From an uncultured bacterium (lineage in GTDB: Bacteria > Lernaellota > Lernaellaia > Lernaellales > Lernaellaceae): a stretch of 36,091 nt of DNA. The stretch lies in the NCBI GenBank assembly GCA_964534375.1, contig CAZHPN010000045.1:1-36091 (forward strand). Reading direction: 5' to 3'. The notes under the pieces are model-generated. The model saw only the letters and a list, made by a program, of their open reading frames with translations. It had not been told where the DNA came from and did not search any database. Made by a program: the position numbers and the translations under genes. Positions 4,205-28,844 of this stretch are shown piece by piece (the first letter of the stretch is position 1; the number at the start of each line of letters is the position of its first letter).

Positions 4205-4288
4205 GCGGAAGTGGTGGAATTGGTAGACGCGCTGGGTTCAGGGTCCAGTGGCCTTACGGTCGTGGGGGTTCAAGTCCCCCCTTCCGCA
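4205..4288 (+). tRNA. tRNA-Leu(CAG), CCA not encoded
   Basis: Acceptor stem GCGGAAG/CTTCCGC plus discriminator A. D-arm TGGTGGAATTGGTAGAC. Anticodon stem CTGGG/TCCAG with loop TT-CAG-GG (anticodon 4239-4241). Long variable arm. T-arm GGGGG-TTCAAGT-CCCCC. Followed by TCG, not CCA. Confidence 0.95.
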
Positions 4289-4637: not shown

Positions 4638-6974
4638 ATGATGTTTTCTCCCGACGAATCAAAGCCCAGCAGCTTGCCCGTGCTGGCTTTACGTAATGCG
4701 ACGTTGTTCCCCGGCACGATCGCGCCGATGGCCGTCGGACGGCCGTTCTCGTTGCGCGCGCTCGAAGCCGCGGAGTCCGAGCGCTCCATGATCGGCGTGT
4801 TCACTCAGTTCGACCCCGAGGTCGAAGAGCCGACCGGAGCCGACATTCACCACATGGGCGTCGCGGCGAAAATTTTGAAGATGGCCGACGATCGCCGCGG
4901 CGGCAAAACCGTTCTTCTTCAAGGATTGTTTCGCATTCGTATTTTGCGTTTTCTCGATTTGAGCCCGATCATGCGGGTCGAGGTCGAGTATCCGCAGGAT
5001 CTCGACGAAGACGATCCGGAGACGACGGCGCTGTTCGCCAAAATCAAGGAAATGGCGCTGGACGTCATCCAAAAGAACCCGGGCCTGCCGCAGGAAGCGA
5101 AACATTTCGTCGAAGAGATGGAACGCCCGGGCATGTTGTGCGATCTGGTGGCTTCGCACCTTTCGGCGCCGATCGAGGAAAAGATCACCATCCTGGAGAC
5201 GCTCGACGTCAAGCAACGTTCCCGGCGCGTCGCGCAGATGCTGTCCACCGAGTTGAATATGCTCGAAACGAAGCGGCGCATCGACCAGCAGGTGCGCGGC
5301 GAGATGGACAAGAACCAGCGCGACTATTACCTCCGCAAGCAGATGGAGGCGATTCGCCGCGAATTGGGCGACGAAGATTCGGCCGAGGACGAACTCGACG
5401 AACTGCGCAAGAAGATCAAAGAGGCCAATCTGCCCGAGGAAGCGCTGAAAACCGCCGAAAAGGAACTCAAGCGGCTGGCGAAGATTCCCTCGTCGTCGCC
5501 GGAGTACACGGTTTCGAAGACCTATCTCGACACCATCCTCGAGTTGCCGTGGAGCAAGTTCTCCGAGGACCATCTCGACATCAAAGAGGCTGAGAAAATC
5601 CTCGACGAGGACCACTACGGACTGGAGAAGGTGAAGAAGCGCATCTTGGAATACCTTGCCGTCCGCAAGTTGAAGCCGGACGTCAAAGGCCCGATCCTGT
5701 GCTTGATCGGCCCGCCGGGCGTCGGCAAAACGAGCCTCGGGCGGTCCGTGGCGCGCGCCATGAATCGTGAGTTCGTGCGAATGAGCCTCGGCGGCATCCA
5801 CGACGAGGCGGAAATCCGCGGCCACCGGCGGACCTACATCGGCGCGCTGCCGGGCCGCATCATTCAGAGCATCAAGAAAGCCGGCGTGGCCAACCCGGTG
5901 CTCATGCTCGACGAGTTGGACAAGGTAGGCAAGGATTTCCGCGGCGATCCGTCGTCGGCGCTGCTGGAAGTGCTCGACCCCGAGCAGAACGACACCTTCG
6001 TCGACAATTACCTGAGCATCCCCTACGACCTGTCGCGCGTGCTGTTCATCGGCACCGCGAACGTGCATGACACGATTCCCGGGCCGCTGCGCGATCGCAT
6101 GGAAGTGATCGACATTCCGGGTTACACGCAGGAAGAGAAGAAGCTGATCGCCAAGAGCCATCTCATCAGCGAAGAGATGGAAAACCACGGCCTCAGTCCG
6201 GACACCTTCAAAATCACCGACGCCGCCTTGGATGTGGTCATCGACAAGTACACGCGCGAGGCCGGCGTGCGCAACCTGAAGCGCAACATTGCCGCTCTGT
6301 GCCGCGGCGCCGCCCGGCGCATCGCCGGCGACGATATGAAAAAGGTGACGATCGACAAGCGCCAAGTGCCCATTTATCTCGGGCCGGAGCGCTTCTTCCC
6401 CGAAGTCGCCGAAGCGACCAAGTCGCCCGGCGTCGCGACCGGCATGGCCTGGACGCCGTCCGGCGGCGACATTCTGTTCATCGAGACGACCCTGATGAAG
6501 GGGAAGGGCCAGTTGATCCTCACCGGACAGCTCGGCGAGGTGATGCAGGAATCGGCGAAGGCCGCGATGTCGTACCTGCGCTCGCGCGCGAAGGAGTTCG
6601 ACATCGACCCGATGCGCTTCGAAGAAACCGACGTGCACATTCACATTCCGGCCGGCGCGATCCCGAAAGACGGTCCGTCGGCGGGCATCACGCTGCTGGC
6701 CGCGCTGGCCAGCCTCTTCACCGGCAAACCGGTCCACAACGACCTGGCGATGACCGGCGAGGTGACGCTGCGCGGCCAGATTCTGCCGGTCGGCGGCATC
6801 AAGGAGAAAGTGCTGGCCGCCCGGCGCGCCGGCATCAAAGACGTGATGCTGCCCGAGAAGAATCGGCGCGACCTCGAGGAAATCCCCGAGGAAATCCGCA
6901 AGGGCCTGACGTTGCATTTCGTCGGCAACGTCGACGACGCGCTGAAGTTCGCCCTGTCGCCGAACCTGAATTAG
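4638..6974 (+). CDS. lon: ATP-dependent protease La (Lon)
   Basis: N-terminal LPVLALRNATLFPG, DHYGLEKVKKRILEYLA, Walker A GPPGVGKT, RRTYIGALPG, Walker B LMLDELDK, catalytic Ser PKDGPSAG and Lys GGIKEK. Confidence 0.97.
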   Translation: MMFSPDESKPSSLPVLALRNATLFPGTIAPMAVGRPFSLRALEAAESERSMIGVFTQFDPEVEEPTGADIHHMGVAAKILKMADDRRGGKTVLLQGLFRIRILRFLDLSPIMRVEVEYPQDLDEDDPETTALFAKIKEMALDVIQKNPGLPQEAKHFVEEMERPGMLCDLVASHLSAPIEEKITILETLDVKQRSRRVAQMLSTELNMLETKRRIDQQVRGEMDKNQRDYYLRKQMEAIRRELGDEDSAEDELDELRKKIKEANLPEEALKTAEKELKRLAKIPSSSPEYTVSKTYLDTILELPWSKFSEDHLDIKEAEKILDEDHYGLEKVKKRILEYLAVRKLKPDVKGPILCLIGPPGVGKTSLGRSVARAMNREFVRMSLGGIHDEAEIRGHRRTYIGALPGRIIQSIKKAGVANPVLMLDELDKVGKDFRGDPSSALLEVLDPEQNDTFVDNYLSIPYDLSRVLFIGTANVHDTIPGPLRDRMEVIDIPGYTQEEKKLIAKSHLISEEMENHGLSPDTFKITDAALDVVIDKYTREAGVRNLKRNIAALCRGAARRIAGDDMKKVTIDKRQVPIYLGPERFFPEVAEATKSPGVATGMAWTPSGGDILFIETTLMKGKGQLILTGQLGEVMQESAKAAMSYLRSRAKEFDIDPMRFEETDVHIHIPAGAIPKDGPSAGITLLAALASLFTGKPVHNDLAMTGEVTLRGQILPVGGIKEKVLAARRAGIKDVMLPEKNRRDLEEIPEEIRKGLTLHFVGNVDDALKFALSPNLN

Positions 6975-7376: not shown

Positions 7377-8540
7377 TCATTTCTTCCCGCGCGCTTCCTC
7401 GAAAACTCGCAACGCCTCCGCCATCGGCAGGCCCGATTTGAGCAGATCGCCGTATTCCGGCTTGGAATGCACGAGCTTGCCCTGGTAGTACGCGTGTTTG
7501 AGGCGCACGGGGCCGTAGGCGGTGTCGATCGTCTCGAAGCGCCGTTCGCAGGCCGCGCGTTCGGCGGAGCGATAGCGCAGGCCGAGCGTCGTCGAGTGAG
7601 TGAACACGGCCTCGATGACGCTTTGCAGCGCGCTTTCGGCGCAGACGACCAGCAGCAGCACGCCGGGCCGGCCGCGCTTCATGATGCAGGGGATCAGCGT
7701 GACGTCGAGCGCGCCGGCCTCTTCCAGCTTTTTCGCCAGCGGCTCGTAGTGCTCGGGGTTCATGTCGTCGATGTTGGCTTCGATAGTGTAGGTCTTTTCC
7801 GCGGTCTCGGGCATATTCTGATCGTCGCCGAGCAGCGCGCGTACGACGTTCGGCGGGCCGTTCGCGTCGTTGCGCGCGCCGGCGCCGTACCCGACGCGCC
7901 GCAGAATCATCGCCGGCGGCGGGCCGTAGCCGTCGGCCACGGTGGAGATCAGCGTGGCGCCGGTGGGCGTGACGGTTTCCACCGGCAGGGCATAGCCGTA
8001 CACCGGCGCGTCGGCGAGCAGCGCGACCGTCGCCGGCGCGGGCAGCGGCAGCAAGCCGTGAATGCTTCGGATCTGACCGTGGCCGAGCGGCAGCGGGCTG
8101 CACACCACGCGGTCGATGGCGAGGCTGTGCAGACCCTGGCAAAAGCCGACGATGTCGATGATCGAGTCGACGGCGCCAACCTCGTGGAAATGCACGTGTT
8201 CGAGAGACTCGCCGTGGATCTTCGCCTCGGCGTCGCCGAGACGGCGAAAGGCGCAACGGGCGCGGCCCTTGACCGGCTCGGGCAGCCGGGCGTCGGCGAT
8301 GAGCTGGTCGATCTCGACCCAGCGCCGGTGCGGCTGGTCGTGGGGAAAATCGATGTGCAGCAGCGGGGCGGCGAGGGCGCCGCGGCGCATGCGTTCCACC
8401 GAAATGCGGACGTCGGGCAGCCCGAGGGCCGCCGGCAGCGCGGCGAGTTCCGCTTCCGCGAAGCCGAGGTCGAGCAGCGCGCTCACCAGCATGTCGCCGG
8501 CCGCGCCGGCAAAACAATCGAGGTACAGCAGCCGTCCCAT
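7377..8540 (-). CDS. larC: Nickel pincer cofactor biosynthesis protein LarC (Ni insertase)
   Basis: YLDCFAGAAGDML, HFHEVGAVDSIIDIVG, LPLPAPAT, VTPTGA, GYGAG, IEANIDDMNPE, MKRGRPG, TTLGLR, KPEYGD. Confidence 0.93.
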   Translation of the reverse strand: MGRLLYLDCFAGAAGDMLVSALLDLGFAEAELAALPAALGLPDVRISVERMRRGALAAPLLHIDFPHDQPHRRWVEIDQLIADARLPEPVKGRARCAFRRLGDAEAKIHGESLEHVHFHEVGAVDSIIDIVGFCQGLHSLAIDRVVCSPLPLGHGQIRSIHGLLPLPAPATVALLADAPVYGYALPVETVTPTGATLISTVADGYGPPPAMILRRVGYGAGARNDANGPPNVVRALLGDDQNMPETAEKTYTIEANIDDMNPEHYEPLAKKLEEAGALDVTLIPCIMKRGRPGVLLLVVCAESALQSVIEAVFTHSTTLGLRYRSAERAACERRFETIDTAYGPVRLKHAYYQGKLVHSKPEYGDLLKSGLPMAEALRVFEEARGKK

Positions 8541-8542
8541 GG

Positions 8543-9307
<765 letters not shown>

Positions 9308-14577: not shown

Positions 14578-16509
14578 TCAGTAAATTTCCTCGATTTGCG
14601 AGGCGCCGACGCGCAACAGGAAGAGCCGGCGCTCGGCGTCGCGGTTTTCGCCGATCGTGATGTCGCCGGTCACGCCGGGGAAATCGCGCACGCGCAGCAA
14701 CTCGCGGATGACCGCCGCGCGGTCGAGTTCGCCCGGGCGGCCGACGATCTTGGCCATGATGCGCGCCGTGTCGTAGCCGGCCGCGGCGAGAATGTTCGGC
14801 GGATGATGAAACGCCTCTTCGTAGCGCTGCACGAACGGCTCGATTTCCGCATTGGCCTTGCTGCGCGGGAAGAACGCGTCGACGAAAACCGCCTTGGTCA
14901 AATACCGGCCGGCCCGTTTCGCCAGGTCGTCGTCGTTCCACGAATTGACGCCCAGCAGCAGCACGTCGCGCACGCCGTAATAAACGAGCTGCGGCGCGAG
15001 CAGGGCGATCTGCCGCGAGCCGTCCGGCAGGAAAAGGGCGTCGAACTGGCCGTGCGCCTGCAATTGGGCGATGGCGCGTTTGTAGTCGGTTTCGTTCGGC
15101 GAATAGGCGACGGCCGCGACGAGCCGATAGTGCTGCGGGTCGAGGAATTGCGTGAACAAGTCGCGGTACGTCCGCCCTTGCGCGCTGTCGGGGTAGAGGA
15201 TCGCGAACCGGAACGCGCCCTGATGACCCGTGGCGTATTGAATCAACGCTTTGACCTCGGCGGAGGGCGTCAGGAAATTGCGGAACGTCCATTGGCCGGG
15301 GCCGAGGATGTTTTCGCGCGCGGTCAGGGCGATCAGCGGCACGCCGCGCAATTCGGCCTCGGCGACGGCCTTCTCGGCGCATTTGCCGAGCAGCGGGCCG
15401 ATAATGGCGAACACGGTCGGATCGTCGGCCAATTCGTCGACGAATTTCGCCGCAATATCCGGGTCGCCCGCGTCGTCGCGCACTACCGCCTGGAACCGGC
15501 CGGCCCCGCCCGGTCCGAACAATTCGACGCCTTGCATGATCCCCTGCAACACCTGCTGACCGAACGAAGCTTCCGGCCCGGACAGCGTCAAGATGACGCC
15601 GACCGAGCGGCGCGGCGTTTCCGTTGGCGTCGCGGGCGCGAGCGGCGCGGCGGCGACCGGCGCCGGCGCGAGCGACGGCGCGGCGCGGGTCGGCTCGGCG
15701 GCGGCGCGCGGGGCCTGCGCCTCGGCGACGTCGAGCAACTTTTCGGCCTTTTCGTAAAACGTGTAGGGTTTCTTGGTGTAGTTAATCGCGCGCAGCAACG
15801 TGGCCGCTTCCGGCCGGCGGCCGTGCTCGACGAGCCATTCGGCGACGCGGAAGCGTGTGAAATCGGCGATCGGGCCTTCGGGCAGACGCGGAATCACCGT
15901 CAGCCAATGCGCCGGCGTCAGTTCCTCGTCGACGATCCGCCGCGCCTTTTTGAGCGTCTCGACCTGGGTGTCGCGCTCGGAGTGCACCGCAGCGGCGGCG
16001 TACGTGAGCAACGCGTCGTCAAATTTTTTCACATGTTCGTAACTGTCGCCCAGCAGCAGCCGCGCCTCATCGGGATTTTTCACGCCGGCGACGCTGATGT
16101 AGTAGCTCAAGGCGGCGATCGCTTCTTCGTGTTGGCCGAGTTGCCGCCGGCAGACGCCGATTTGCCGATGGGCCTCGACCGCCAGCGGGTTGTCCGGATG
16201 CCGGGCGACCAGCATTTCATAATAATTCAACGCCTTTTCCGGCAGGTTCGCTTTCTGATAAATCGCGCCGACGCGGGACATCGACGCCGCGCCGGGCTGG
16301 CTGGACGGCCAACGCTCGATCACGGCCAGAAAGGTCTCCATGGCCTTGGCCAGGAAGTTGTTCCGGTAGTAAGCCTCCGCCTTCTCGTACATGTCCGCGG
16401 CCTCGGCGCTTACGGGTGCGGCGGGTTTGACCGCGGCGGCGCCCGACGCGCACGCGGCGGACAGCAACAGCAAGACGATGATAAAGCTCAGGCGTCGGGA
16501 TCGGCGCAT
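14578..16509 (-). CDS. Lipoprotein with N-terminal TPR (BamD-like) repeats and C-terminal type-1 periplasmic-binding fold (LpoA/LppC-like PBP activator)
   Basis: ATG 16509 after AAAGGA; lipobox SAAC; TPR helices; Ala/Pro linker; VGVILTLSG, IIGPLL, FDALFLPD, LAPQLVYY, GYD, FPGVTGDI. Confidence 0.8.
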   Translation of the reverse strand: MRRSRRLSFIIVLLLLSAACASGAAAVKPAAPVSAEAADMYEKAEAYYRNNFLAKAMETFLAVIERWPSSQPGAASMSRVGAIYQKANLPEKALNYYEMLVARHPDNPLAVEAHRQIGVCRRQLGQHEEAIAALSYYISVAGVKNPDEARLLLGDSYEHVKKFDDALLTYAAAAVHSERDTQVETLKKARRIVDEELTPAHWLTVIPRLPEGPIADFTRFRVAEWLVEHGRRPEAATLLRAINYTKKPYTFYEKAEKLLDVAEAQAPRAAAEPTRAAPSLAPAPVAAAPLAPATPTETPRRSVGVILTLSGPEASFGQQVLQGIMQGVELFGPGGAGRFQAVVRDDAGDPDIAAKFVDELADDPTVFAIIGPLLGKCAEKAVAEAELRGVPLIALTARENILGPGQWTFRNFLTPSAEVKALIQYATGHQGAFRFAILYPDSAQGRTYRDLFTQFLDPQHYRLVAAVAYSPNETDYKRAIAQLQAHGQFDALFLPDGSRQIALLAPQLVYYGVRDVLLLGVNSWNDDDLAKRAGRYLTKAVFVDAFFPRSKANAEIEPFVQRYEEAFHHPPNILAAAGYDTARIMAKIVGRPGELDRAAVIRELLRVRDFPGVTGDITIGENRDAERRLFLLRVGASQIEEIY

Positions 16510-17609
16510 ATCGTTCCTTTGGATTCGGCGACGAGGCGGGCGGCCAATTCCGCTGCCGTTTTCGGGTCGCCGTTGCGCGCGGCGTGCAGCCATGTCATGG
16601 CCGCGCGGCGGGCCGGCGCGTCCAGATTTTCCGGCAGGAAAACTTCCAGCGCCAGCACCAGGTCACCCTTTTTCTTCCGGGACTCGGCATAAAAGCCCAG
16701 GTCCGAAACGCGAATTTCGCGATCCGGGTACGAGCCCGGTGGAATGCTCACTTCCACCGCGTCGCCCGTCGGCAGTGCGACGGCCACTTTGCCGCCCTTC
16801 ATCGCCGTGCAAAACGGAATGGGCTTTTCGAGCACCAGGTCGTCGTCCCGCCGCGAGAAATGCAGCGAACCTTCGACGCGGACCTCGACGAGCAGGTCGC
16901 CGTCGCGGCCATTGGCGAGGCCGGCGTCGCCTTTGTCCTTGGCGCGCAAGACGGCGCCGTTCGCGATCCCCGCCGGCAGACGGAGCGTGACCGCGGCGTC
17001 CTCCGCTACGCGGCCCTTGCCGCGGCACGGTCGGCAGCGGCCTTCGCCGACGACGCCGAAGCCGCCGCACTTCGGGCACCGTTTCTTCAGCAGGCCGACG
17101 GCGGGGAAGAGCAACTGTCCTTTGCCGCCGCAAAGCGGGCACTCTTCCGTATGCGGCCGGCCCGCGCCGTTGCACGCCGTGCAGCGCGCGAGACGGCGGT
17201 ATTCGACCCGCAGATCGCCGCCTTTGTAGCTGTCGACGAACGAAACGGATGCTCGGCGCACGATGTCGCCGCCGTGGAGTTGCGCGCCGGCGCCAGCGGC
17301 AAAAATGGCGCGCGCGTTGCGCATGAGGTAGCCGGCGACCCGCGCTCGGCCGCTCGGTTCCTGGATCAAATCGGCGAGGCGGCGCAACGGCGGCATCATG
17401 ACGAAGAGGCGCGTGGCGTCGTAACGGCGGCGGCGCTGCGGATCGGACAACACGCGGTAGGCTTCGGTGATCGCGGCGAAACGGGCGGAATCCACCGGCT
17501 GGCCGCTCGCGTCCGGATGATGCTGGCGGAGCTGACGGCGGTACGCGGCGCGAATCGTGTCGTCGCTGTCCTTCGGCCCGACGCCGAGAATCGCGTAATG
17601 GTCGCGCAT
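16488..17609 (-). CDS. dnaJ: DnaJ-class co-chaperone (J domain, Zn finger, C-terminal domain)
   Basis: DHYAILGV, HPD motif, EAYRVLSDPQRRRRYD; four CxxCxGxG repeats (CTACNGAG, CPLCGGKG, CPKCGGFG, CRPCRGKG); GDLLVEV; follows dnaK. Confidence 0.88.
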   Translation of the reverse strand: MRDHYAILGVGPKDSDDTIRAAYRRQLRQHHPDASGQPVDSARFAAITEAYRVLSDPQRRRRYDATRLFVMMPPLRRLADLIQEPSGRARVAGYLMRNARAIFAAGAGAQLHGGDIVRRASVSFVDSYKGGDLRVEYRRLARCTACNGAGRPHTEECPLCGGKGQLLFPAVGLLKKRCPKCGGFGVVGEGRCRPCRGKGRVAEDAAVTLRLPAGIANGAVLRAKDKGDAGLANGRDGDLLVEVRVEGSLHFSRRDDDLVLEKPIPFCTAMKGGKVAVALPTGDAVEVSIPPGSYPDREIRVSDLGFYAESRKKKGDLVLALEVFLPENLDAPARRAAMTWLHAARNGDPKTAAELAARLVAESKGTICADPDA

Positions 17610-17624
17610 GCCCCCTCAACCACG

Positions 17625-17659
17625 AAAAAAGGGGGCGCCCGCCATCGGCCGCGCCCCCT
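17625..17659 (-). terminator. Intrinsic terminator/attenuator between dnaK and dnaJ
   Basis: Minus strand: gggggcgc-ggccgatggcgg-gcgccccc followed by T6, 15 nt before the dnaJ ATG. Confidence 0.75.
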
Positions 17660-17679
17660 GGGTTCGGTCGCCTAACGGG

Positions 17680-19566
<1,887 letters not shown>

Positions 19567-19611
19567 ATCCCCTTACCTCCTCACAGCCAAGACGTTTGCT
19601 CGCAGTTCAAA

Positions 19612-20523
19612 TTACGAATTGTCATTGCCGGCCTTTGCCGGCGGCGGCGAATCTGTTTCCGCAGCCTTCGCCGGCGGCGGCGCGGTTGCTTCGGCGGCGT
19701 TGGCCGGCGCCGCGGGGGCTGCCGGCGCATGGTTGTTTGCCCGTTGGCTGACGACCACGCGCGCCGGGCGAAGCAACCGATCGAACAATTTGTAGCCTTT
19801 CAAATACTCGCTGATGACGACGTTGGGGCCGACCTCGTCCGTTTCCACCGTCGCCAACGCCTCGTGGAAATTCGGGTCGAAAACCTGCCCCTTGGCTTCG
19901 ATCGGCGTCAACCCGGCCGCGACGAGCGCGGCGCCCAGTTGCTTATGCACGAGGCGCACGCCTTGCACCATCGCAGCTTTCTCTTCCGTCGAATCAGCGT
20001 GCTCGATTGCACGTTCGAGGTTATCCAAAATCGGCAAGAGTTTCAACAGCAGGTTTTCGTTGCCGAACCGCTTGACCGATTCGGCTTCTTTCGTCACCCG
20101 GCTGCGAAACTTTTCGGTTTCTTCCTGGATGGAATTCACGCGTTTCGTGAGTTCCTCGATTTGCTGCTCTTTCTCTTTCAAGGCAGCATCGTCGACCTTC
20201 GTCTCGGGCGCGCTCGCCGCCTTGCCCGCGGCGGATTTGAAAGCTCCGGCGTCTTTCTCGACGCTGATTTCTTTCTCCAAAATCCGGGAGAGAGTCGCCA
20301 ATTCGGCTTCCAGATCGGGCGTGCGCTCGACCTTTTCGCGCGGGGCGGGCGTGGCGGCAGGCGCGGCGACGGCAGGCGCGACGACGGGCGTCGGCGGCGC
20401 GGCTTTGGCTGCGGCGCGCGCTTCGGAGCGGATTTTTTCGACGGCGAGCAACGCTTCTTCAAACGCCGAACTTGGGATGCCGGCGTCGACCGTGTTCTCG
20501 TCCTCTTTGGGGTCGGTTTTCAA
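19612..20523 (-). CDS. grpE: Nucleotide exchange factor GrpE with long Ala/Pro-rich N- and C-terminal extensions
   Basis: LLPILDNLERA, FDPNFHEA, KGYKLFDRLLRPARVVV; directly upstream of dnaK; TTG start uncertain. Confidence 0.92.
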   Translation of the reverse strand: MKTDPKEDENTVDAGIPSSAFEEALLAVEKIRSEARAAAKAAPPTPVVAPAVAAPAATPAPREKVERTPDLEAELATLSRILEKEISVEKDAGAFKSAAGKAASAPETKVDDAALKEKEQQIEELTKRVNSIQEETEKFRSRVTKEAESVKRFGNENLLLKLLPILDNLERAIEHADSTEEKAAMVQGVRLVHKQLGAALVAAGLTPIEAKGQVFDPNFHEALATVETDEVGPNVVISEYLKGYKLFDRLLRPARVVVSQRANNHAPAAPAAPANAAEATAPPPAKAAETDSPPPAKAGNDNS

Positions 20524-20865: not shown

Positions 20866-23487
20866 ATGAGGCGGAAAAAGCGGTGGGTGGTGATCAAGTT
20901 CGGCGGCGCGAGCGTCGCCACGGTCGGCAATTGGCGGAACATCGCCGCGATCGTTCGGTCGCGCCTGGCCGAGGGGCTGCGGCCATGGGTGGTCTGCTCG
21001 GCGCTCGCCGGCGTTTCGAACGATCTGGAAGCGCTATTGGCCAAGCCGGCGGGCGAAGGCGCCCGCGGCCTGCTCGACCGGGTCCGCGACAAGCACCTCA
21101 AACTTGCCACGGACATGGGCGTGGACGGCGCGGCGCTGCTGGGCGAGTCCTTTGCGGAGCTGCAGCGCCTGACGCAGGGCGCGGCGCTGGTCGGCGAGGT
21201 CAGCCCGCGGCTGCACGCGAAGGTGATGGCCTTCGGCGAGTTGATGTCCACCAAACTCGGCGCGGCGTTCCTGCAGGCCGAGGGCATTCGCACGACCTGG
21301 AAGGACGCGCGCGAGATTCTCGTCTCCGAAGACAACGAACGGTTCGGGCTGCGCCAGAAATACCTCTCGGCGATGTGCTGCAGCGCCTCCGACCGCCATT
21401 TGCAGGAAGCGCTGGCGGCCGAGCCGGCGCAGGCGATCGTTACCCAGGGCTTCATCGCCCGCAACCCGGCCGGCGACACGGTGCTGCTCGGCCGCGGCGG
21501 CTCGGACACGTCGGCGGCGTACTTCGCGGCTTTGCTCGATGCGGCCCGCTGCGAAATCTGGACCGACGTGCCCGGCATTTTCTCGGGCAACCCCAAGCAG
21601 GTGCCGAACGCGCGCCTGCTGATGAAACTCGATTACGAAGAGGCGCAGGAAATCGCCTCGATGGGCGCCAAGGTGCTGCACCCGCGGTCGATTGCCCCGC
21701 TGCGCGAGAGCAACATCCCCATTTACATCCTCAGCACGTTCCGGCCCGAGATCGAAGGCACGGTCATCGCCGCGGACGCGCCGGCCACCGGCGGACAGGT
21801 CAAGGCGATTTGCTCCAAACGCAACATCACCGTCGTGTCGATGGAAACGCTCGGCATGTGGCAGCAAGTCGGCTTCCTGGCCGACGTGTTCGCCTGCTTC
21901 AAGGCGCACGGCCTCTCGATCGACCTGGTCTGCACGTCCGAAACGAACGTCACGGTGACGCTCGACGCCGCCGCCAACGCCCTCGCGCCGGACAGCTTCG
22001 AGCCGCTGCTCGCCGACCTGGCGAAAATCTGCACGCCGCGGCGCATCGGGCCGTGCGCGTCGGTCAGCCTCGTCGGGCGGCACATCCGGACGATCCTGCA
22101 CCAGCTCGGCCCGGCGCTCGAGATTTTCGGCGAGTCGAAGATTCATCTGGTTTCGCAGGCGGCCAACGATCTGAATCTGACGTTCATCGTGGATGAAGAC
22201 CAGGTCGATCGGCTCGTCGATCAACTGCACTCGCTGCTTTTCGAACATCATCGCAGCGAGGCGCTGTTGGGCCCGATGTGGAGCGACATTTTCGCGGAAA
22301 AGACGATCGCCAAGGCCGCGCCGGCCGCCGCGTGGTGGCGCGATCGCCGGGCCGATCTGCTCGCCCTCGCCGCGAAGGAGACGCCGCTGTACGTCTACGA
22401 CGAGGCGACGCTGGCCGACGCCGCGGGGCAGTTGCGCGGGCTCGATGCCGTGAGCCGCGTCTTCTATTCGGTCAAGGCCAACTCCTTTCCGCCGATTCTC
22501 CGGCTCTTTTACGAGCAGGGGCTCGGCTTCGAGTGCGTGTCGCCCGGCGAAGTCGCGCACGTGCTGCAGTTGTTCCCCGACCTCGATCGGCGGCGCGTGT
22601 TGTTCACGCCGAATTTCGCGCCGCGCAAGGAATACGAAGACGCGTTGGCGGCCGGCGTGATCGTCACGCTGGACAACGTCTTTCCGCTCGCGAAGTGGCC
22701 CGAGTTGTTCGCCGGCCGCGAGATTTTCGTGCGCGTCGACCCGGGGCAGGGGCGCGGCCATCACAGCCACGTCATGACCGCGGGCAGCCAGTCGAAATTC
22801 GGCGTGACGCGCGAGCAGTTCGACAAACTGGTCGAGTTGGCGCGCGCGAATCGGGTGCGCATTCGCGGCCTGCACGCCCACACCGGCAGCGGCATCCTGA
22901 TGCACGAAAATTGGAAGGAGACCGCGACGTTCCTTGCCTCGCTCGCCGACAGCCTGCCGGAGGTCGAGGTGCTCGACGTCGGCGGCGGCCTGGGCGTCGT
23001 TGAAAAGCCGGGCCAGCTCGCCCTCGACCTGCCGAAGATGGACGCCGGCCTGAAAGAAGTGAAGGCGGCGTATCCGCGGCTCGAGTTGTGGCTGGAGCCG
23101 GGCCGTTTCCTGGTCGCGCACGCGGGCGCGTTGCTGGCGACCGTCACGCAGACCAAGCAGAAAAACGGCGCACAGTACGTCGGCGTCAACGCGGGCATGA
23201 ACACGCTGATCCGGCCGGCGCTCTACGGCGCGTATCACGAAATCGTCAACCTTACGGCGCTCGACGAAGAAGACCGCATTCAGGCCAACATCGTCGGGCC
23301 GATCTGCGAATCGGGCGACGTGCTCGGCCACGATCGCAGCATCGCGCCGGTCGATGAAGGCCACGTCCTGCTGATCGCGACCGTCGGCGCCTACGGGTAC
23401 GTGATGAGTTCGCATTACAATATGCGCGCGCCGGCGACGCAGGTGTTCCTGCCGAAGCGGCAGGGAACAGCGAACAGTGAACAGTGA
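20866..23487 (+). CDS. lysAC: Bifunctional aspartate kinase / diaminopimelate decarboxylase
   Basis: AK domain: KFGGASV, GELMST, TQGFIA, LGRGGSDTSAA, WTDVPG, GAKVLHP, ACT domains. DAP decarboxylase domain: YSVKAN, SKFG, HAHTGSG, DVGGG, EPGRFL, GPICESGD, GAYG. Confidence 0.95.
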   Translation: MRRKKRWVVIKFGGASVATVGNWRNIAAIVRSRLAEGLRPWVVCSALAGVSNDLEALLAKPAGEGARGLLDRVRDKHLKLATDMGVDGAALLGESFAELQRLTQGAALVGEVSPRLHAKVMAFGELMSTKLGAAFLQAEGIRTTWKDAREILVSEDNERFGLRQKYLSAMCCSASDRHLQEALAAEPAQAIVTQGFIARNPAGDTVLLGRGGSDTSAAYFAALLDAARCEIWTDVPGIFSGNPKQVPNARLLMKLDYEEAQEIASMGAKVLHPRSIAPLRESNIPIYILSTFRPEIEGTVIAADAPATGGQVKAICSKRNITVVSMETLGMWQQVGFLADVFACFKAHGLSIDLVCTSETNVTVTLDAAANALAPDSFEPLLADLAKICTPRRIGPCASVSLVGRHIRTILHQLGPALEIFGESKIHLVSQAANDLNLTFIVDEDQVDRLVDQLHSLLFEHHRSEALLGPMWSDIFAEKTIAKAAPAAAWWRDRRADLLALAAKETPLYVYDEATLADAAGQLRGLDAVSRVFYSVKANSFPPILRLFYEQGLGFECVSPGEVAHVLQLFPDLDRRRVLFTPNFAPRKEYEDALAAGVIVTLDNVFPLAKWPELFAGREIFVRVDPGQGRGHHSHVMTAGSQSKFGVTREQFDKLVELARANRVRIRGLHAHTGSGILMHENWKETATFLASLADSLPEVEVLDVGGGLGVVEKPGQLALDLPKMDAGLKEVKAAYPRLELWLEPGRFLVAHAGALLATVTQTKQKNGAQYVGVNAGMNTLIRPALYGAYHEIVNLTALDEEDRIQANIVGPICESGDVLGHDRSIAPVDEGHVLLIATVGAYGYVMSSHYNMRAPATQVFLPKRQGTANSEQ

Positions 23488-23647: not shown

Positions 23648-25087
23648 ATGCCAGAATCGCACAATCTGCCGGCAAAGCCGGCCGGCGCGGCGATGACTCG
23701 CCGCGAAAAGGCGGAACTGGAAGCGCGGTTCGGCCGCCATATCAACGAGGGGCAGGTCAAATATCTCAAGGCCGGCCACCTCGATGTCATCGAGACGCAA
23801 CGCAGCGGCATTCGTTTCGTCGATCCCGTGCAGAACCGGCCGTTTATCGATTGCTTCGGCTCGGCCGGCTGCTTCAATGTCGGCCGCCGCAATCCGGAAG
23901 TCATGGCCACGCTGGTTGCGGCGCTCGACGAATACGACATGGGCTCGTTCCACATGGTCTCGGCGCCGAAGGCGAGGCTGGCGAAAAAGCTCGTCGAACT
24001 CGCGCCGGCCGGCGTCGATCGCGTGCTGTTCGCGGCGGGCGGCGGCGACGCCGTCGATGCGGCGATCAAGCTCGCGCGCGGCGCCACGGGCCGGTCGGAA
24101 ATCATTTCGACCGTCAAGGGCTATCACGGCCACACCGGCTTCGCGCTCGGCGCCAACGGCAAAGCCCATTATCGCGAATACTGCGAGCCGCTGATCCCCG
24201 ACTTCCGTTTCGCGCCGTTCAACGACCTCAAGGCGATGGAGGCGATGGCCTCGCCGCGGACCGCAGCGATTATCATCGAACCGGTGCAGGGCGAGGCCGG
24301 CATTTTCGTCGGCGACGACGATTACCTTCGCGGCCTGCGCGCGCTCTGCGATCGCTGCGGCGCGCTGCTGATCTTCGACGAAATCCAAACGGGCTTCGGC
24401 CGCACCGGGCGCTTCTTCGCCTGCGAGCATTCCGGCGTCTCGCCCGACATTATGACGATCGCCAAGTCGCTCGGCGGCGGGCTGTACCCGAACGCGGCGG
24501 TGCTCTATCGCGGAAGCAAAACGCTGGCCGGGTACGTCGACAAGAATCCGGATTTTCACCCGAGCCCCGCGGGCGGCGCCGACCTGGCCTGCCTCGTCTC
24601 GCTCAAGGCGATCGAACTGATCGAGAAGAACCGCCTCTGCGCCAACGCCGAGGCGATGGGCGCGCGGTTGAAAGGGGCGTTGCGCGAACTGCTCGAGCAG
24701 AACCCGAAGATCATCAAAGAAGTGCGCGGGCGCGGCCTGATGATCGGCATCGAATATATCCATGAATTCATGGGGCCGATGATGTCCGACGCGCTGGCGA
24801 AAAATGGGATGTTCGCGGCGTACTCGGGCAACGCCCCGCAGGTGATGCGCTTCATGCTGCCGCTGACCGTGACCGACGAGGAAATGGACACGGTCATCGC
24901 CGCCATTCGCGGGGCCGTCGCGTCGATGAAGATGCTGCTGCCGTTCGCCCTGCCGGCCGCGAAGATTCCGGCCGTGCTGCGCGCGCTCAACAACGAGAAG
25001 GCGCAGATCGTTCTGTTCGGTTTCCTGCGGCGCGTTGAGGATGCGGTCGGCGTCGTCGGCCGCGCGTTCAAAGGAGGTCGCTCATGA
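23648..25087 (+). CDS. Class-III PLP aminotransferase (putrescine/acetylornithine-AT-like), catalytic Lys intact
   Basis: [73 protein letters not shown]. Confidence 0.9.
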
Positions 25088-26316
25088 GCCCGAAACGGAC
25101 AGCGGTCGCGGATCCGTTTGACGACTTCGCCGCCTTCGTCGGGCCCGGCGCCGTGGCGCGGCTGCGCGGCCTCGGCCACGATTTCCTCGAAACGCGGCGC
25201 GCGGGCCCGTGCGTCTGGGACGCCGCGGGCAAACGCTATTTCGATTGCTTCGCCGGCGCGGGGACGTTCAACCTCGGCCGCCGGCCGCCGCGGATCGTCG
25301 CCGCGCTCCAGCGCGCGCTGACCCTGACCGACCAGGGCAACTTCGCGATGATCTCGATCGAGAAAGCGCGCCTGGCGGCGACGCTCGCCGACTTCACGCC
25401 CGGCGGGCTCGACTGCGCGGTGTTCAGCGTGGTGCGCGGCGAGACCGTCGAGTTCGCCTGCAAACTCGCGCGCGGCTTCACCGGCCGGCCGGAACTGATT
25501 GCCTTCGCCGGCGGCTGGCACGGCGAGACCGGCTTCGCGCTCAGCCTCTCGACGCGGCCCGATCAGCCGCATTTCGCGCCCCTGACGCCGCGCACGCGCC
25601 TCATTCCGTTCGGCGACATCGACGCGGCCCGCCAAGCGATCACCGGCCAGACCGCCGCGGTCTTTTTCGAACCGGTGCAGGCCGAGAACCACGGCCGCGC
25701 CTTCGCCGGCGATTTCCTGCGCGACCTCGAACGGCATTGCCGCGCGGTCGGCGCCCTGCTCGTCGCCGACGAAACGCAGACCGGCTTCGGCCGCACGGGC
25801 AAACGTTTCGCCGTCGAGCGCGCGGGCGTCGATCCGGACATGCTGATCGTCGGCGAGGCGCTCGGCGCGGGCATCTTTCCGATCGCGGCGACGATCTACC
25901 AGCAGCGGCTCAACGCGTTCATGAACGATCATCCGCTGATTCATCTTTCGACCTTCGGCGGCTCGGACCTCGGTTGCCTCGTCGCGCTCGAAGCGCTCGC
26001 GGTCTACGAAGAAACGCGCCCGTGGGAGAACGCCGAGAAGCTCGGCGTGCGGTTGCGGGAAGGCCTGGAAAAGATCGCGGCCGCGCGGCCGCGCGTCATC
26101 GAATCCGTCGCCGGCGTCGGCTTGCTGCTGTCGCTGCAATTGGCGACGCCGGCCAAGGCGCGCGATTTTTGCAAGGCGCTGGCGAAAGAGGGCGTGCTGG
26201 CCATGCCGGGCGCGGTCGAGAAACGCGCCGTGGTTTTGCGGCCGTGCCTGACGATCACCGCCGCCGACGCCGACGAGATCGTCGCGGCCGTTGGCCGCGC
26301 CGCGAAAGGCAAATGA
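25084..26316 (+). CDS. Class-III aminotransferase paralog with the PLP-lysine replaced by Glu
   Basis: [61 protein letters not shown] overlap with the upstream gene. Confidence 0.88.
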   Translation: MSPKRTAVADPFDDFAAFVGPGAVARLRGLGHDFLETRRAGPCVWDAAGKRYFDCFAGAGTFNLGRRPPRIVAALQRALTLTDQGNFAMISIEKARLAATLADFTPGGLDCAVFSVVRGETVEFACKLARGFTGRPELIAFAGGWHGETGFALSLSTRPDQPHFAPLTPRTRLIPFGDIDAARQAITGQTAAVFFEPVQAENHGRAFAGDFLRDLERHCRAVGALLVADETQTGFGRTGKRFAVERAGVDPDMLIVGEALGAGIFPIAATIYQQRLNAFMNDHPLIHLSTFGGSDLGCLVALEALAVYEETRPWENAEKLGVRLREGLEKIAAARPRVIESVAGVGLLLSLQLATPAKARDFCKALAKEGVLAMPGAVEKRAVVLRPCLTITAADADEIVAAVGRAAKGK

Positions 26317-26417: not shown

Positions 26418-27620
26418 ATGAAAGCGCTCTATTTCGACAACAACCTGCCGAAAATCCTCGCGCTCAAGGCGCTGTCGGTCGTCGACAAATACGCGGCGTT
26501 CGGGCGGTTCTCGCCGGTGCGCTACGCCGACGTCCCGGAGCCGAAGCTGCCGAATCCGCGGTGGTTGAAGGTCCGCAACCTGGCCTGCGGGCTGTGCGGC
26601 ACGGACATCCATTTTCTCTTCATGGACATGGACCCGCAGTGCTTTTCCGCCGCGACGCCCGGCATCGCGCGCAAATTCCTCGGGCACGAATTGGTCGGCG
26701 AAATCGTCGAGGTCGGCGCCGAGGCCGACGGCTGGCGGGTTGGCGAACGCGTGGCGCTGCGCATCGAGTGGCCCTCGTGTTTTCAACTGGAAATCGACCC
26801 GCCGTGCCGCCAATGCCGCGCCGGCAATTACATGCTTTGCGAGAACCTCGGCAAGAAGCAGTTGCCGCTGCGCGACCTTGGCGGCGGCTTTTCGCCTCAT
26901 ATGGTCATGCACCGCACGCAGCCGTATCGCCTCCCGAAAAACCTGTCGCTCGATCGCGCGCTGCTGCTGGAGCCGACGGCCAGCGCGCTGCACGGCGTGC
27001 GCAAGGGCGCGCCGCGGGCGGGCGAGCGGGCGCTGGTGATCGGCGCGGGCACAATCGGCCTGCTGTGCGTGGCGATCGCGCGCGCGCTGTCGCCGAAGAC
27101 GACGATCGATTGCGTGGCGCGGCATCCGTTTCAGGCGGACGCGGCGCGGCGTCTGGGCGCGGACGAGGTCGTCAGCGGCGGCAAGCTGTACGAGCGGCTG
27201 GCCGCGCGCACGGGCGCCCGTTATTTCCGCGGCTATTTCGGCAACGAGATTCTGCTCGGCGGCTATGATGTGGTTTATGACACGGTAGGCAACGACCGCA
27301 GCATCAACGACGCCCTGCGGTGGGCGCGCGGCGGCGGCCGCGCCGTGATTCTCGGCATCAATTTTCATCCGGGGAAAATCGACTACTCGGCGATCTGGAC
27401 GCAGGAACTGCAAGTCACCGGCATCAATTGCCATGCGATGGAGACCGCAAGCGAAAGTTCGTTCGACCTCGCCGCCAAACTGCTCGCCGATCCGAAATTC
27501 CCGGTCGACGAACTGATCACGCACCGGTTTCCGCTGGATCGTTATCAAGAGGCGGTAAAGACGTTTCTCGATAAGGAACACGGTCACGCCATCAAGATTG
27601 TGCTCGAACACGGGAGGTAG
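26418..27620 (+). CDS. Zinc-dependent medium-chain dehydrogenase (MDR/threonine-DH-like)
   Basis: CGLCGTDIH, LGHE, structural Zn cysteines (SC...CRQC...LC), LEP, Rossmann GAGTIG, ITHRFPL; RBS GGAG. Confidence 0.9.
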   Translation: MKALYFDNNLPKILALKALSVVDKYAAFGRFSPVRYADVPEPKLPNPRWLKVRNLACGLCGTDIHFLFMDMDPQCFSAATPGIARKFLGHELVGEIVEVGAEADGWRVGERVALRIEWPSCFQLEIDPPCRQCRAGNYMLCENLGKKQLPLRDLGGGFSPHMVMHRTQPYRLPKNLSLDRALLLEPTASALHGVRKGAPRAGERALVIGAGTIGLLCVAIARALSPKTTIDCVARHPFQADAARRLGADEVVSGGKLYERLAARTGARYFRGYFGNEILLGGYDVVYDTVGNDRSINDALRWARGGGRAVILGINFHPGKIDYSAIWTQELQVTGINCHAMETASESSFDLAAKLLADPKFPVDELITHRFPLDRYQEAVKTFLDKEHGHAIKIVLEHGR

Positions 27621-27824: not shown

Positions 27825-28844
27825 TTGGAGACGGACGGCGGCAAGAAAAAAACTCGCGCGATCGCGCTGCTGTCGGGCGGGCTCGACAGCACGTTGACGA
27901 TCAAAATGTTGCTCGACCAAGGCATCGACGTCATCGCGCTGAATTTCACGAGCGTTTTTTGCACATGCACGCCGAAAACCGCGAGTTGCCACATCGCAAC
28001 TTCCGTGGCCCGCGAACTCGGCGTCGAACTCAAGACGCTGGTAAAGGGCCTCGACTACCTCAAGATCGTCGAAAATCCGCGGCACGGCCGCGGGCGCGGC
28101 ATGAACCCCTGCATCGACTGTCGCATTTACATGCTGCGGCGCTCGGCCGAGGTGATGCGCGAGACCGGCGCGGCGTTCGTCGCGACGGGCGAAGTGCTCG
28201 GCCAGCGGCCGATGTCGCAGCATCTGGCGGCGATCAAGCTGATCGAAAAGGAAAGCGGCCTCGCCGGGTTGATCGTCCGCCCGCTGAGCGCGGCATTGCT
28301 GGCGCCGTCAAAGCCGGAACTGGACGGCCTCGTGGATCGCAGCCGGCTGCTCGCGATCCAGGGCCGAACTCGGCGTGTGCAACTTGAAATGGCGCGCACG
28401 ATGGGCGTCGAGACATTTTCGTGCGCCGCGGGCGGCTGTCTGCTGACCGACCCGGCGATCGGCCGTCGCGTAGCGGATATGTTCCACCATTGCCCCGGCT
28501 ACGACATGCCCGAGGTCCGGCTGCTGACGGTCGGCCGGCATTATCGGCTGCGGCCCGCCCTGAAGGCGATCGTGAGCCGCGCCGACGCCGAAGGCCAGCG
28601 CATGGAAGCGCTTGCCGGTCCCCGGTTGCGCATGGAACTGGCCGACATGCCCGGTCCGACGCTCGTGGCCTGCGGCGACGTGACCGACGACGACCTGCCG
28701 GCGCTCGCCCGCCTGCTGGCGCATCACCAAAAGAAGCTTGCAGACGATGGTTTTACGGTGAAGATCGTGCGCGATGCCGCCACGACGCGACTCGCCGCCG
28801 CCGGCCGGCTCGCGCCCGCCGAGATCGAGAGTTGGCGCATCTGA
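27825..28844 (+). CDS. Cys-rich PP-loop ATPase, ThiI/MnmA-like (tRNA) sulfurtransferase family lacking a THUMP domain
   Basis: LSGGLDS PP-loop, FCTC...SC, NPCIDC, TGEVLGQRPMSQ, GGCLLTDP, GRHYRL; TTG start after GAGAGGGG. Confidence 0.8.
   Translation: METDGGKKKTRAIALLSGGLDSTLTIKMLLDQGIDVIALNFTSVFCTCTPKTASCHIATSVARELGVELKTLVKGLDYLKIVENPRHGRGRGMNPCIDCRIYMLRRSAEVMRETGAAFVATGEVLGQRPMSQHLAAIKLIEKESGLAGLIVRPLSAALLAPSKPELDGLVDRSRLLAIQGRTRRVQLEMARTMGVETFSCAAGGCLLTDPAIGRRVADMFHHCPGYDMPEVRLLTVGRHYRLRPALKAIVSRADAEGQRMEALAGPRLRMELADMPGPTLVACGDVTDDDLPALARLLAHHQKKLADDGFTVKIVRDAATTRLAAAGRLAPAEIESWRI

Follow-up and report, generated by a model that had tools for sequence, protein, structure and literature searches.

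The locus described here raises the question of how two adjacent genes, both encoding proteins of the class-III aminotransferase fold and each lacking a part of the active site that the other retains, could give rise to a working enzyme. The two genes, termed A and B, lie in a 36,091-nucleotide stretch of DNA (contig CAZHPN010000045.1 of GenBank assembly GCA_964534375.1, from an uncultured bacterium of the phylum Lernaellota), which is referred to as ‘the window’ throughout. A first-pass annotation, made from the letters of the window alone, had proposed that A keeps the lysine that binds pyridoxal 5'-phosphate (PLP) and has lost a threonine that is normally donated to the partner subunit, that B displays the reciprocal pattern, and that an A/B heterodimer would therefore possess exactly one complete site. 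The comparative evidence assembled below (residue conservation, gene adjacency, co-occurrence across genomes, natural gene fusions and a mirror-image distribution of constraint) supports that proposal, and it is probable that A and B form an obligate heterodimeric class-III (fold-type I) aminotransferase with a single functional PLP site per dimer.

Membership of both proteins in the class-III family is clear from their scores against the PF00202 profile (294.9 bits for A and 231.8 bits for B, with a gathering cutoff of 30.5), and they are 38% identical to one another. Neither A nor B reaches any NCBIfam equivalog cutoff: the putrescine aminotransferase model NF008570 returns 324.1 and 234.7 bits for A and B, respectively, against a cutoff of 612, TIGR03372 returns 266 and 215.5 bits against 658.65, and PigE, the second-best relative of both proteins in NCBIfam and in PDB, returns 318 and 232 bits against 850. 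The best solved match for both is the Escherichia coli putrescine aminotransferase YgjG/PatA (PDB 4uox; E values of 1.5e-78 for A and 5.8e-60 for B), and residue equivalences were taken from HMMER alignments to that structure, in which the chain numbering is that of the corresponding paper (see the table).

In YgjG, PLP is described as forming a Schiff base on Lys300, with Asp271 contacting the pyridine nitrogen, and its phosphate as being hydrogen bonded by Thr151, by Gly150 and by Thr332* of the other subunit (PMC4244111, in the portions of that paper drawn upon here). The premise of the first-pass annotation, that the lysine acts in cis while the threonine reaches in trans to the PLP phosphate of the partner, holds in those portions for this closest solved relative. 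When A and B are laid over the same framework, the parts prove to be divided between them. The catalytic lysine is present in A (K273) and replaced by glutamate in B (E258); the equivalents of Asp271, Gln274 and Glu243 are found in both proteins, all of them invariant; the phosphate-loop glycine is kept by A (G132 invariant, with Gly or Ala at G133) and replaced in B (R118-G119); and the trans threonine is lost from A (P307) and retained by B (T290, invariant). At the carboxylate-binding position, where A has R401, B has V384, and an invariant arginine of B (R386) lies two residues further on. Because it lacks the catalytic lysine, B is not classed here as an active aminotransferase, and with B devoid of the defining catalytic features and A devoid of the trans threonine, neither protein is a standard homodimeric class-III enzyme. 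The residue pattern originally drawn (K273 with P307 in A; E258, an arginine phosphate loop and T290 in B) proved exact in the alignment to 4uox, and a re-reading of the sequence bore out the codons that had been named (AAG at 24464 for K273, GAG at 25855 for E258, and the ATGA at 25084-25087).

The altered residues of B are shared by its relatives. With B as the query, a word-index search gave 780 proteins at E <=1e-30, and in the 120 listed matches that were examined (50-100% identity) E258, R118, G119, E120 and T290 are invariant in all 120, N202 is near-invariant, and C204 is present in 114; D229, Q232 and E201 are retained as well. E258, R118 and T290 are likewise invariant in all 79 B orthologues drawn from genomic loci, at identities down to 45%, 46 aligned B orthologues share 56 invariant columns, and the reading frame of B in the window is intact. 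Representatives of clusters at 50% identity were also searched exhaustively, and the 150 proteins listed, with the window's own added (151 rows), gave 137 Lys, 9 Glu, 2 Arg, 1 His and 2 fragments or gaps at the lysine column. The nine Glu rows also carry a V-x-R-G-E loop of the B type, while the first phosphate-loop position, an arginine in B, is Gly in 129 of the 137 Lys-bearing relatives. The B type stops at about 45% identity to the B of the window, and the relatives beneath that level have Lys. A B orthologue that retains lysine was sought among the 120 listed homologues, the 79 loci and the nine B-type representatives, and none of them does so. Judged by this record of conservation, the glutamate and the arginine loop of B are a family trait, and not the product of error or decay.

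A corresponding examination of A was carried out with 74 orthologues, three short pieces (L003, L034 and L039) having been dropped. Lysine occupies the K273 position in all 74, and K273, D244, Q247, E216, R401 and G132 are invariant both in these loci and in 46 aligned A orthologues. The trans-threonine column of the same 74 proteins contains Tyr in 20, His in 19, Ser in 11, Ile in 9, Phe in 3, Pro in 2 and Thr in 2, with other residues in the remainder. Threonine or serine is thus found there in only 13 of the 74, as opposed to 135 of the 137 Lys-bearing relatives (Thr 121, Ser 14, Ala 1, gap 1), and the sole Ala among the latter belongs to P0131, itself a member of the A family. In the closest canonical relatives of A, which score about 600 bits against the A profile versus more than 850 for true A proteins, the lysine and an HLSTFGG loop are both kept. 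The suggestion that the Lys-to-Glu change in B would co-occur with loss of the trans threonine in A is therefore confirmed, with only two Thr and 11 Ser among the 74 A genes that adjoin B.

When A and B are merged into one alignment, the constraint on the two families is seen to be distributed in mirror image. Positions fixed in A and free in B are cis elements of the site (H160, H162, G218, R401, the motif at 393-402, and F70, S72, A73 and F76), whereas those fixed in B and free in A are the residues of the trans loop (H283, L288, T290 and F291), together with F87. Two pairs, G132/R118 and K273/E258, are fixed in both families and yet differ between them.

The two genes also travel together. 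A scan of one genome per species produced 80 loci with a relative of B, and 76 of these have, immediately upstream of B and on the same strand, a distinct gene of the A type with 46-71% identity to A; the number rises to 77 if locus L069, where A and B are a single open reading frame (ORF), is counted, and in the other three (L022, L025 and L042) B begins no more than about 200 nucleotides from the end of a contig. These loci come from the Myxococcota, Thermodesulfobacteriota, Spirochaetota (including Leptospira-like genomes), Nitrospirota, Hydrogenedentota, Actinomycetota (Thermoleophilia), Bdellovibrionota and Synergistota. The window's own genome contains one A and one B, and the 17 genomes searched from its phylum comprise eight that have both genes, adjacent to each other, and nine that have neither. 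A sample of 301 genomes was searched from the phylum of the genome that carries locus L020 (the locus being labelled Thermodesulfobacteriota): matches of at least 589 bits to the B profile occur in four genomes, matches of at least 755 bits to the A profile occur in the same four, with the two genes adjacent, and a fifth genome yields a match (436 and 532 bits) to a single canonical gene that has both the lysine and HLSTFGG. Separately, one A-type gene (G300:C1:1515752-1517122) contains a single in-frame TAG within its match, which could reflect a damaged copy, an error in sequencing or read-through.

In several instances the two genes have become one. The L069 protein is an in-frame A-B polypeptide of 938 amino acids, joined by a repeat linker rich in Gly, Ser, Thr, Glu and Pro, and four further A-B fusions of 851-906 amino acids were found among longer proteins, two of them from clusters present on three contigs each. 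The first halves of the fusions score 887-914 bits against the A profile and carry AKS(L/F), with the lysine, together with HVTYSGG, HETYSGG or HPTSTGG; the second halves score 550-622 bits against the B profile and carry GEALG and HLSTFGG. This brings the natural fusions to five, all in the order A-then-B.

Where the genes are separate, their junction is usually tight. In the window, a Shine-Dalgarno-like run (AAAGGAGG) lies within the end of A and is followed by an ATGA in which B starts and A stops (a four-nucleotide overlap). In the 76 separate-gene loci there are 35 four-nucleotide overlaps, five other overlaps, 19 gaps of 1-4 nucleotides, 13 gaps of 10-26 nucleotides and four gaps above 26, so that at 59 of the 76 the genes overlap or lie at most four nucleotides apart, a distribution biased toward tight spacing by the choice of the B start nearest to the stop of A. 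An Rfam scan found no RNA element near the two genes, and promoter- and terminator-like sites are no more numerous than in shuffled sequence. The A protein ends in a helical extension of about 50 amino acids, in which P441, Q453, F457, R461 and E464 are nearly invariant among A-type subunits; the extension is found neither in B nor in the canonical relatives of about 426 amino acids, and it falls outside the confident predicted interface described next.

That interface comes from a structure prediction for the A-B complex, for which A and B were supplied with purpose-built alignments of 46 rows. The pair scored 0.96 in three runs, against 0.00 for the best of three controls; in calibration, 116 of 157 solved complexes and two of 215 mismatched pairs attain the mark concerned, and these counts hold only roughly when a user's own alignments are employed. 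The runs share at least 94% of their contacts, with a partner predicted local distance difference test (pLDDT) score of at least 93 and a value of 94 for B. The confident interface comprises A residues 130-134, 272-273 and 297-309 and B residues 116-118, 120, 258 and 279-292, and corresponds to the classical dimer interface of class-III enzymes. A heterodimer of the kind envisaged by the first-pass annotation is predicted on this score.

In a FastTree phylogeny of 85 rows, the A and B clades are recovered with supports of 100 and 99, respectively, and with similar internal groupings. Within this tree the two clades are not sisters, and the rows nearest to A carry both Lys and Thr. The row nearest to the B clade, P0127, has a B-like arginine loop (VGRGEA) yet retains the lysine, and is a possible evolutionary intermediate toward B. 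Pairwise distances within A and within B, measured over the same 46 genomes, are correlated (r = 0.81 over 1035 pairs), with B evolving the faster of the two: the mean p-distance is 0.50 for B versus 0.42 for A, and B exceeds A in 97.8% of the 1035 pairs. Two other groups were encountered in the course of this survey. P0145, P0163 and P0174 form a separate Lys-less class-III clade (support 100) with Arg or His at the lysine position and a degenerate DExQ motif, which may represent a second, independent family of pseudo-subunits. In four genomes of the 301-genome sample (loci L091, L093, L094 and L095), canonical relatives of A occur as tandem pairs with the lysine in both genes; the second gene has IINSFGG in place of HLSTFGG in L091 and L094, and the corresponding stretch lies past the end of the locus in L093 and L095. 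They may represent another type of aminotransferase pair.

For an obligate A/B heterodimer, the following mechanism can be envisaged. Translational coupling would cause A and B to be made in a ratio of about 1:1. The active site would be built from cis residues of A, with K273 serving as both Schiff base and catalytic base, D244 directed to the pyridine nitrogen, Q247 and E216 beside it, Y159 stacking on the cofactor, G132 in the phosphate loop, and R401; it would be completed in trans by the invariant HLSTFGG loop of B, which would place T290 on the PLP phosphate. The second pocket, composed of the cis residues of B and the degenerate loop of A, would be dead for transamination, with its lysine replaced by Glu and its phosphate-loop Gly by Arg, and lacking both an arginine at the carboxylate position and a trans threonine. 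The enzyme would most likely catalyze amino transfer between an amine/carbonyl pair and either alanine/pyruvate or glutamate/2-oxoglutarate, and may feed, or be fed by, the zinc-dependent dehydrogenase encoded next to it.

Several observations weigh against this scheme. The conservation of T290 would fit a B homodimer equally well, in which this invariant residue would be supplied in trans to each B pocket. Thirteen of the 74 A orthologues keep a trans Ser or Thr, and 69 of the 74 have Ser or Thr at position 306, one residue before the lost threonine, so that an A homodimer might still hold PLP to some degree. In B, D229, Q232, E201, the stacking aromatic, R118, E258, N202 and C204 appear, from their conservation, to be maintained and not merely dead. 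The finding of both genes in the same four of 301 genomes comes from a search that scored only five or six candidates per genome, and misses are possible. The score of the predicted complex may reflect likeness to solved class-III homodimers, and does not set AB above AA or BB. Finally, modeling of a natural fusion with AlphaFold2 from a five-row alignment gave a structure of only moderate quality (mean pLDDT 71.2; predicted template modeling score 0.71) with a disordered linker at 432-498, which is compatible with the heterodimer but weak; a fusion-folding alignment that included B-only rows was discarded, MAFFT having set those rows on the A half at 30-37% identity.

The conserved T290, the retained and fixed residues of the B pocket (D229, Q232 and E201 together with R118, E258, N202 and C204) and the Ser or Thr beside the lost threonine of A would also suit an arrangement of two separate homodimers, A2 and B2, that serve one pathway. 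A2 would then be active despite its lost threonine, and B2 would be independent of lysine, acting either as a binding or sensor protein or as an enzyme that employs pyridoxamine 5'-phosphate (PMP) or PLP non-covalently. The Lys-less, PMP-dependent sugar dehydratases provide a precedent for such use of the cofactor, and gene linkage alone is compatible with any shared pathway. However, separate homodimers do not readily account for five natural A-B fusions, for the tight translational coupling of the two genes, or for a trans loop that is free in A and fixed in B; the B phosphate loop has Arg in place of Gly, the carboxylate-binding arginine is gone from B, and the presence of Thr or Ser in 135 of 137 Lys-bearing relatives argues that a homodimeric A would need one or the other. 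This arrangement is accordingly considered quite improbable.

A different possibility is that an AB (or A2B2) complex does form and that the remodeled pocket of B is itself functional, as an allosteric or ligand site or as a docking point for a second substrate or carrier. Were function simply lost, residues would be expected to drift, as has happened in the trans loop of A, and R118, E258, N202, C204 (114 of 120), D229 and Q232 are instead invariant or nearly so. Yet conservation would also be expected of an Arg-Glu pair that does no more than stabilize the protein by filling an empty cofactor pocket, none of the analyses made points to a ligand, and B evolves faster than A overall (by the p-distances of 0.50 and 0.42, and in 97.8% of pairs), all of which leaves a functional B pocket very doubtful. 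The remaining explanation, that B is a decaying pseudogene or that E258 is really a lysine codon in which an A was wrongly sequenced as G (GAG being one base from AAG), is refuted, with next to no probability left to it, by the fixation of Glu in 120 of 120 listed homologues and 79 of 79 loci, the intact frame, the 56 invariant columns and the same state of the residue in the fusions.

The proposed A/B enzyme can be set beside several systems that are already known. YgjG has the same fold as A and B, with an N-terminal helix that touches the partner subunit; it consists of two identical subunits with two complete sites, whereas in the present case the cis and trans parts are divided between paralogues. 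The closest mechanistic analogy is to serine palmitoyltransferase (SPT), in which LCB1 and LCB2 (SPTLC1/2) are homologous subunits of the PLP fold with the lysine in only one of them, and for which a single active site is given as a working hypothesis in the consulted part of the source (PMC3794620). A and B are similarly homologous (38%), with the PLP lysine in A only, and this is an analogy of mechanism and not of family membership: SPT belongs to the alpha-oxoamine synthase subfamily, is eukaryotic and membrane-bound, has small activating subunits and is not a transaminase, while A and B are class-III proteins of bacteria, seem to be soluble and have genes that overlap. PigE of prodigiosin biosynthesis (PDB 4ppm) differs in that its one chain bears the lysine and has an additional domain at the N terminus. 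A full-text literature search, with most subscription journals outside its scope, brought to light no account of a class-III aminotransferase that is heterodimeric or heteromeric and has a Lys-less subunit, and the Protein Atlas returned only generic class-III aminotransferase clusters.

Some indication of the reaction can be gained from the neighboring genes. A zinc-dependent dehydrogenase lies directly downstream of B in the window, in 26 of the 80 loci and in six of six relatives from the window's phylum (an A-B-dehydrogenase order), and in many loci the ORF calls place it tight against the end of B or overlapping it; this neighbor suggests an alcohol-carbonyl-amine sequence. In a second context, seen in about 20 loci, A-B is preceded by an alanine dehydrogenase (scoring 505.6 bits with TIGR00518, above the cutoff of 391.85), in some cases accompanied by an Amidohydro_3 protein, and is followed by a TetR regulator. 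Coupling to alanine dehydrogenase is familiar from amine:pyruvate transaminase operons, and by analogy its presence beside A-B suggests pyruvate/alanine as the co-substrate pair. Since A and B both fall below the putrescine aminotransferase cutoff, the substrate need not be putrescine.

The remaining features of the window are included in the table. A link to lysine biosynthesis was considered on account of the aspartate kinase/diaminopimelate decarboxylase gene upstream of A and was rejected: this gene adjoins A/B in none of the six relatives from the window's phylum, and weak decarboxylase-like matches (25-29% identity) occur in only five of the 80 loci, four of them on the opposite strand. 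The gene at 27825-28844 probably encodes an uncharacterised enzyme of the tRNA-thiolation type. Between 9405 and 16692 there are four long forward-strand ORFs (356, 712, 743 and 738 amino acids) without a Pfam match, and the opposite strand of the same region also has long ORFs.

Table. Positions in the window of genes A and B, of their junction and active-site codons, and of other features; residues are paired with their YgjG/PatA (PDB 4uox) equivalents.
Feature	Position	Strand	Description
Gene A	23648..25087	+	479 amino acids; ORF, PF00202 class-III aminotransferase; putative catalytic subunit
Gene B	25084..26316	+	410 amino acids; ORF, PF00202 fold; lysine-less conserved pseudo-enzyme, putative partner subunit
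Coupling junction	25070..25087	+	AAAGGAGG at 25070-25077 within the end of A, then ATGA at 25084-25087
A C-terminal extension	24929-25087	+	A residues ~428-479
A K273	24464..24466	+	codon AAG; YgjG Lys300 (Schiff base)
B E258	25855..25857	+	codon GAG; YgjG Lys300 (Schiff base)
A P307	24566..24568	+	YgjG Thr332 (trans phosphate Thr)
B T290	25951..25953	+	YgjG Thr332 (trans phosphate Thr)
A G132/G133			YgjG Gly150/Thr151 (phosphate loop)
B R118/G119	25435..25437 (R118)	+	YgjG Gly150/Thr151 (phosphate loop)
A D244, B D229			YgjG Asp271
A Q247, B Q232			YgjG Gln274
A E216, B E201			YgjG Glu243
A Y159, B W145			YgjG Phe180
A R401, B V384			YgjG Arg426 (carboxylate-binding position)
Zn-dependent medium-chain dehydrogenase, threonine-dehydrogenase-like	26418..27620	+	Pfam ADH_N, ADH_zinc_N; below NCBIfam equivalog cutoffs
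Bifunctional aspartate kinase/diaminopimelate decarboxylase fusion	20866..23487	+	NF006515, 1250.6 bits against a cutoff of 802; 160 nucleotides upstream of A
ThiI-like PP-loop domain and NFACT-R_2 RNA-binding domain fusion	27825..28844	+	Pfam; below all NCBIfam cutoffs
LarC-like nickel insertion protein and aminoimidazole ribonucleotide (AIR)-carboxylase/LarB-like gene	7377-9307	-	
dnaJ-dnaK-grpE	16488-20523	-	
Lon protease	4638-6974		
tRNA (one)	4205-4288	+	

Class-III aminotransferases (the ornithine, GABA, putrescine and omega-transaminases among them) are textbook symmetric homodimers and the workhorses of biocatalysis. The hypothesis is directly testable by simple means (two plasmids and a spectrophotometer). 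One immediate consequence concerns annotation, in that hundreds of B-type genes are at present named aminotransferases although they are without the catalytic lysine, and these names can now be corrected. The A-type genes, for their part, are probably inactive without their B partner, and such a dependence, if true, would matter both for metabolic reconstruction and for the cloning of transaminases as single genes. A more speculative form of the proposal, and one that appears rather unlikely, is that the obligate heterodimer has had its B pocket rebuilt as a conserved ligand-binding or regulatory site that controls or feeds the single catalytic site; if that were true, A/B would constitute the first natural family of ‘half-site’ transaminases, widespread in bacteria. 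The A/B family as a whole would offer a natural experiment in how active sites are shared, and in the origin of pseudo-enzymes by gene duplication and reciprocal loss.

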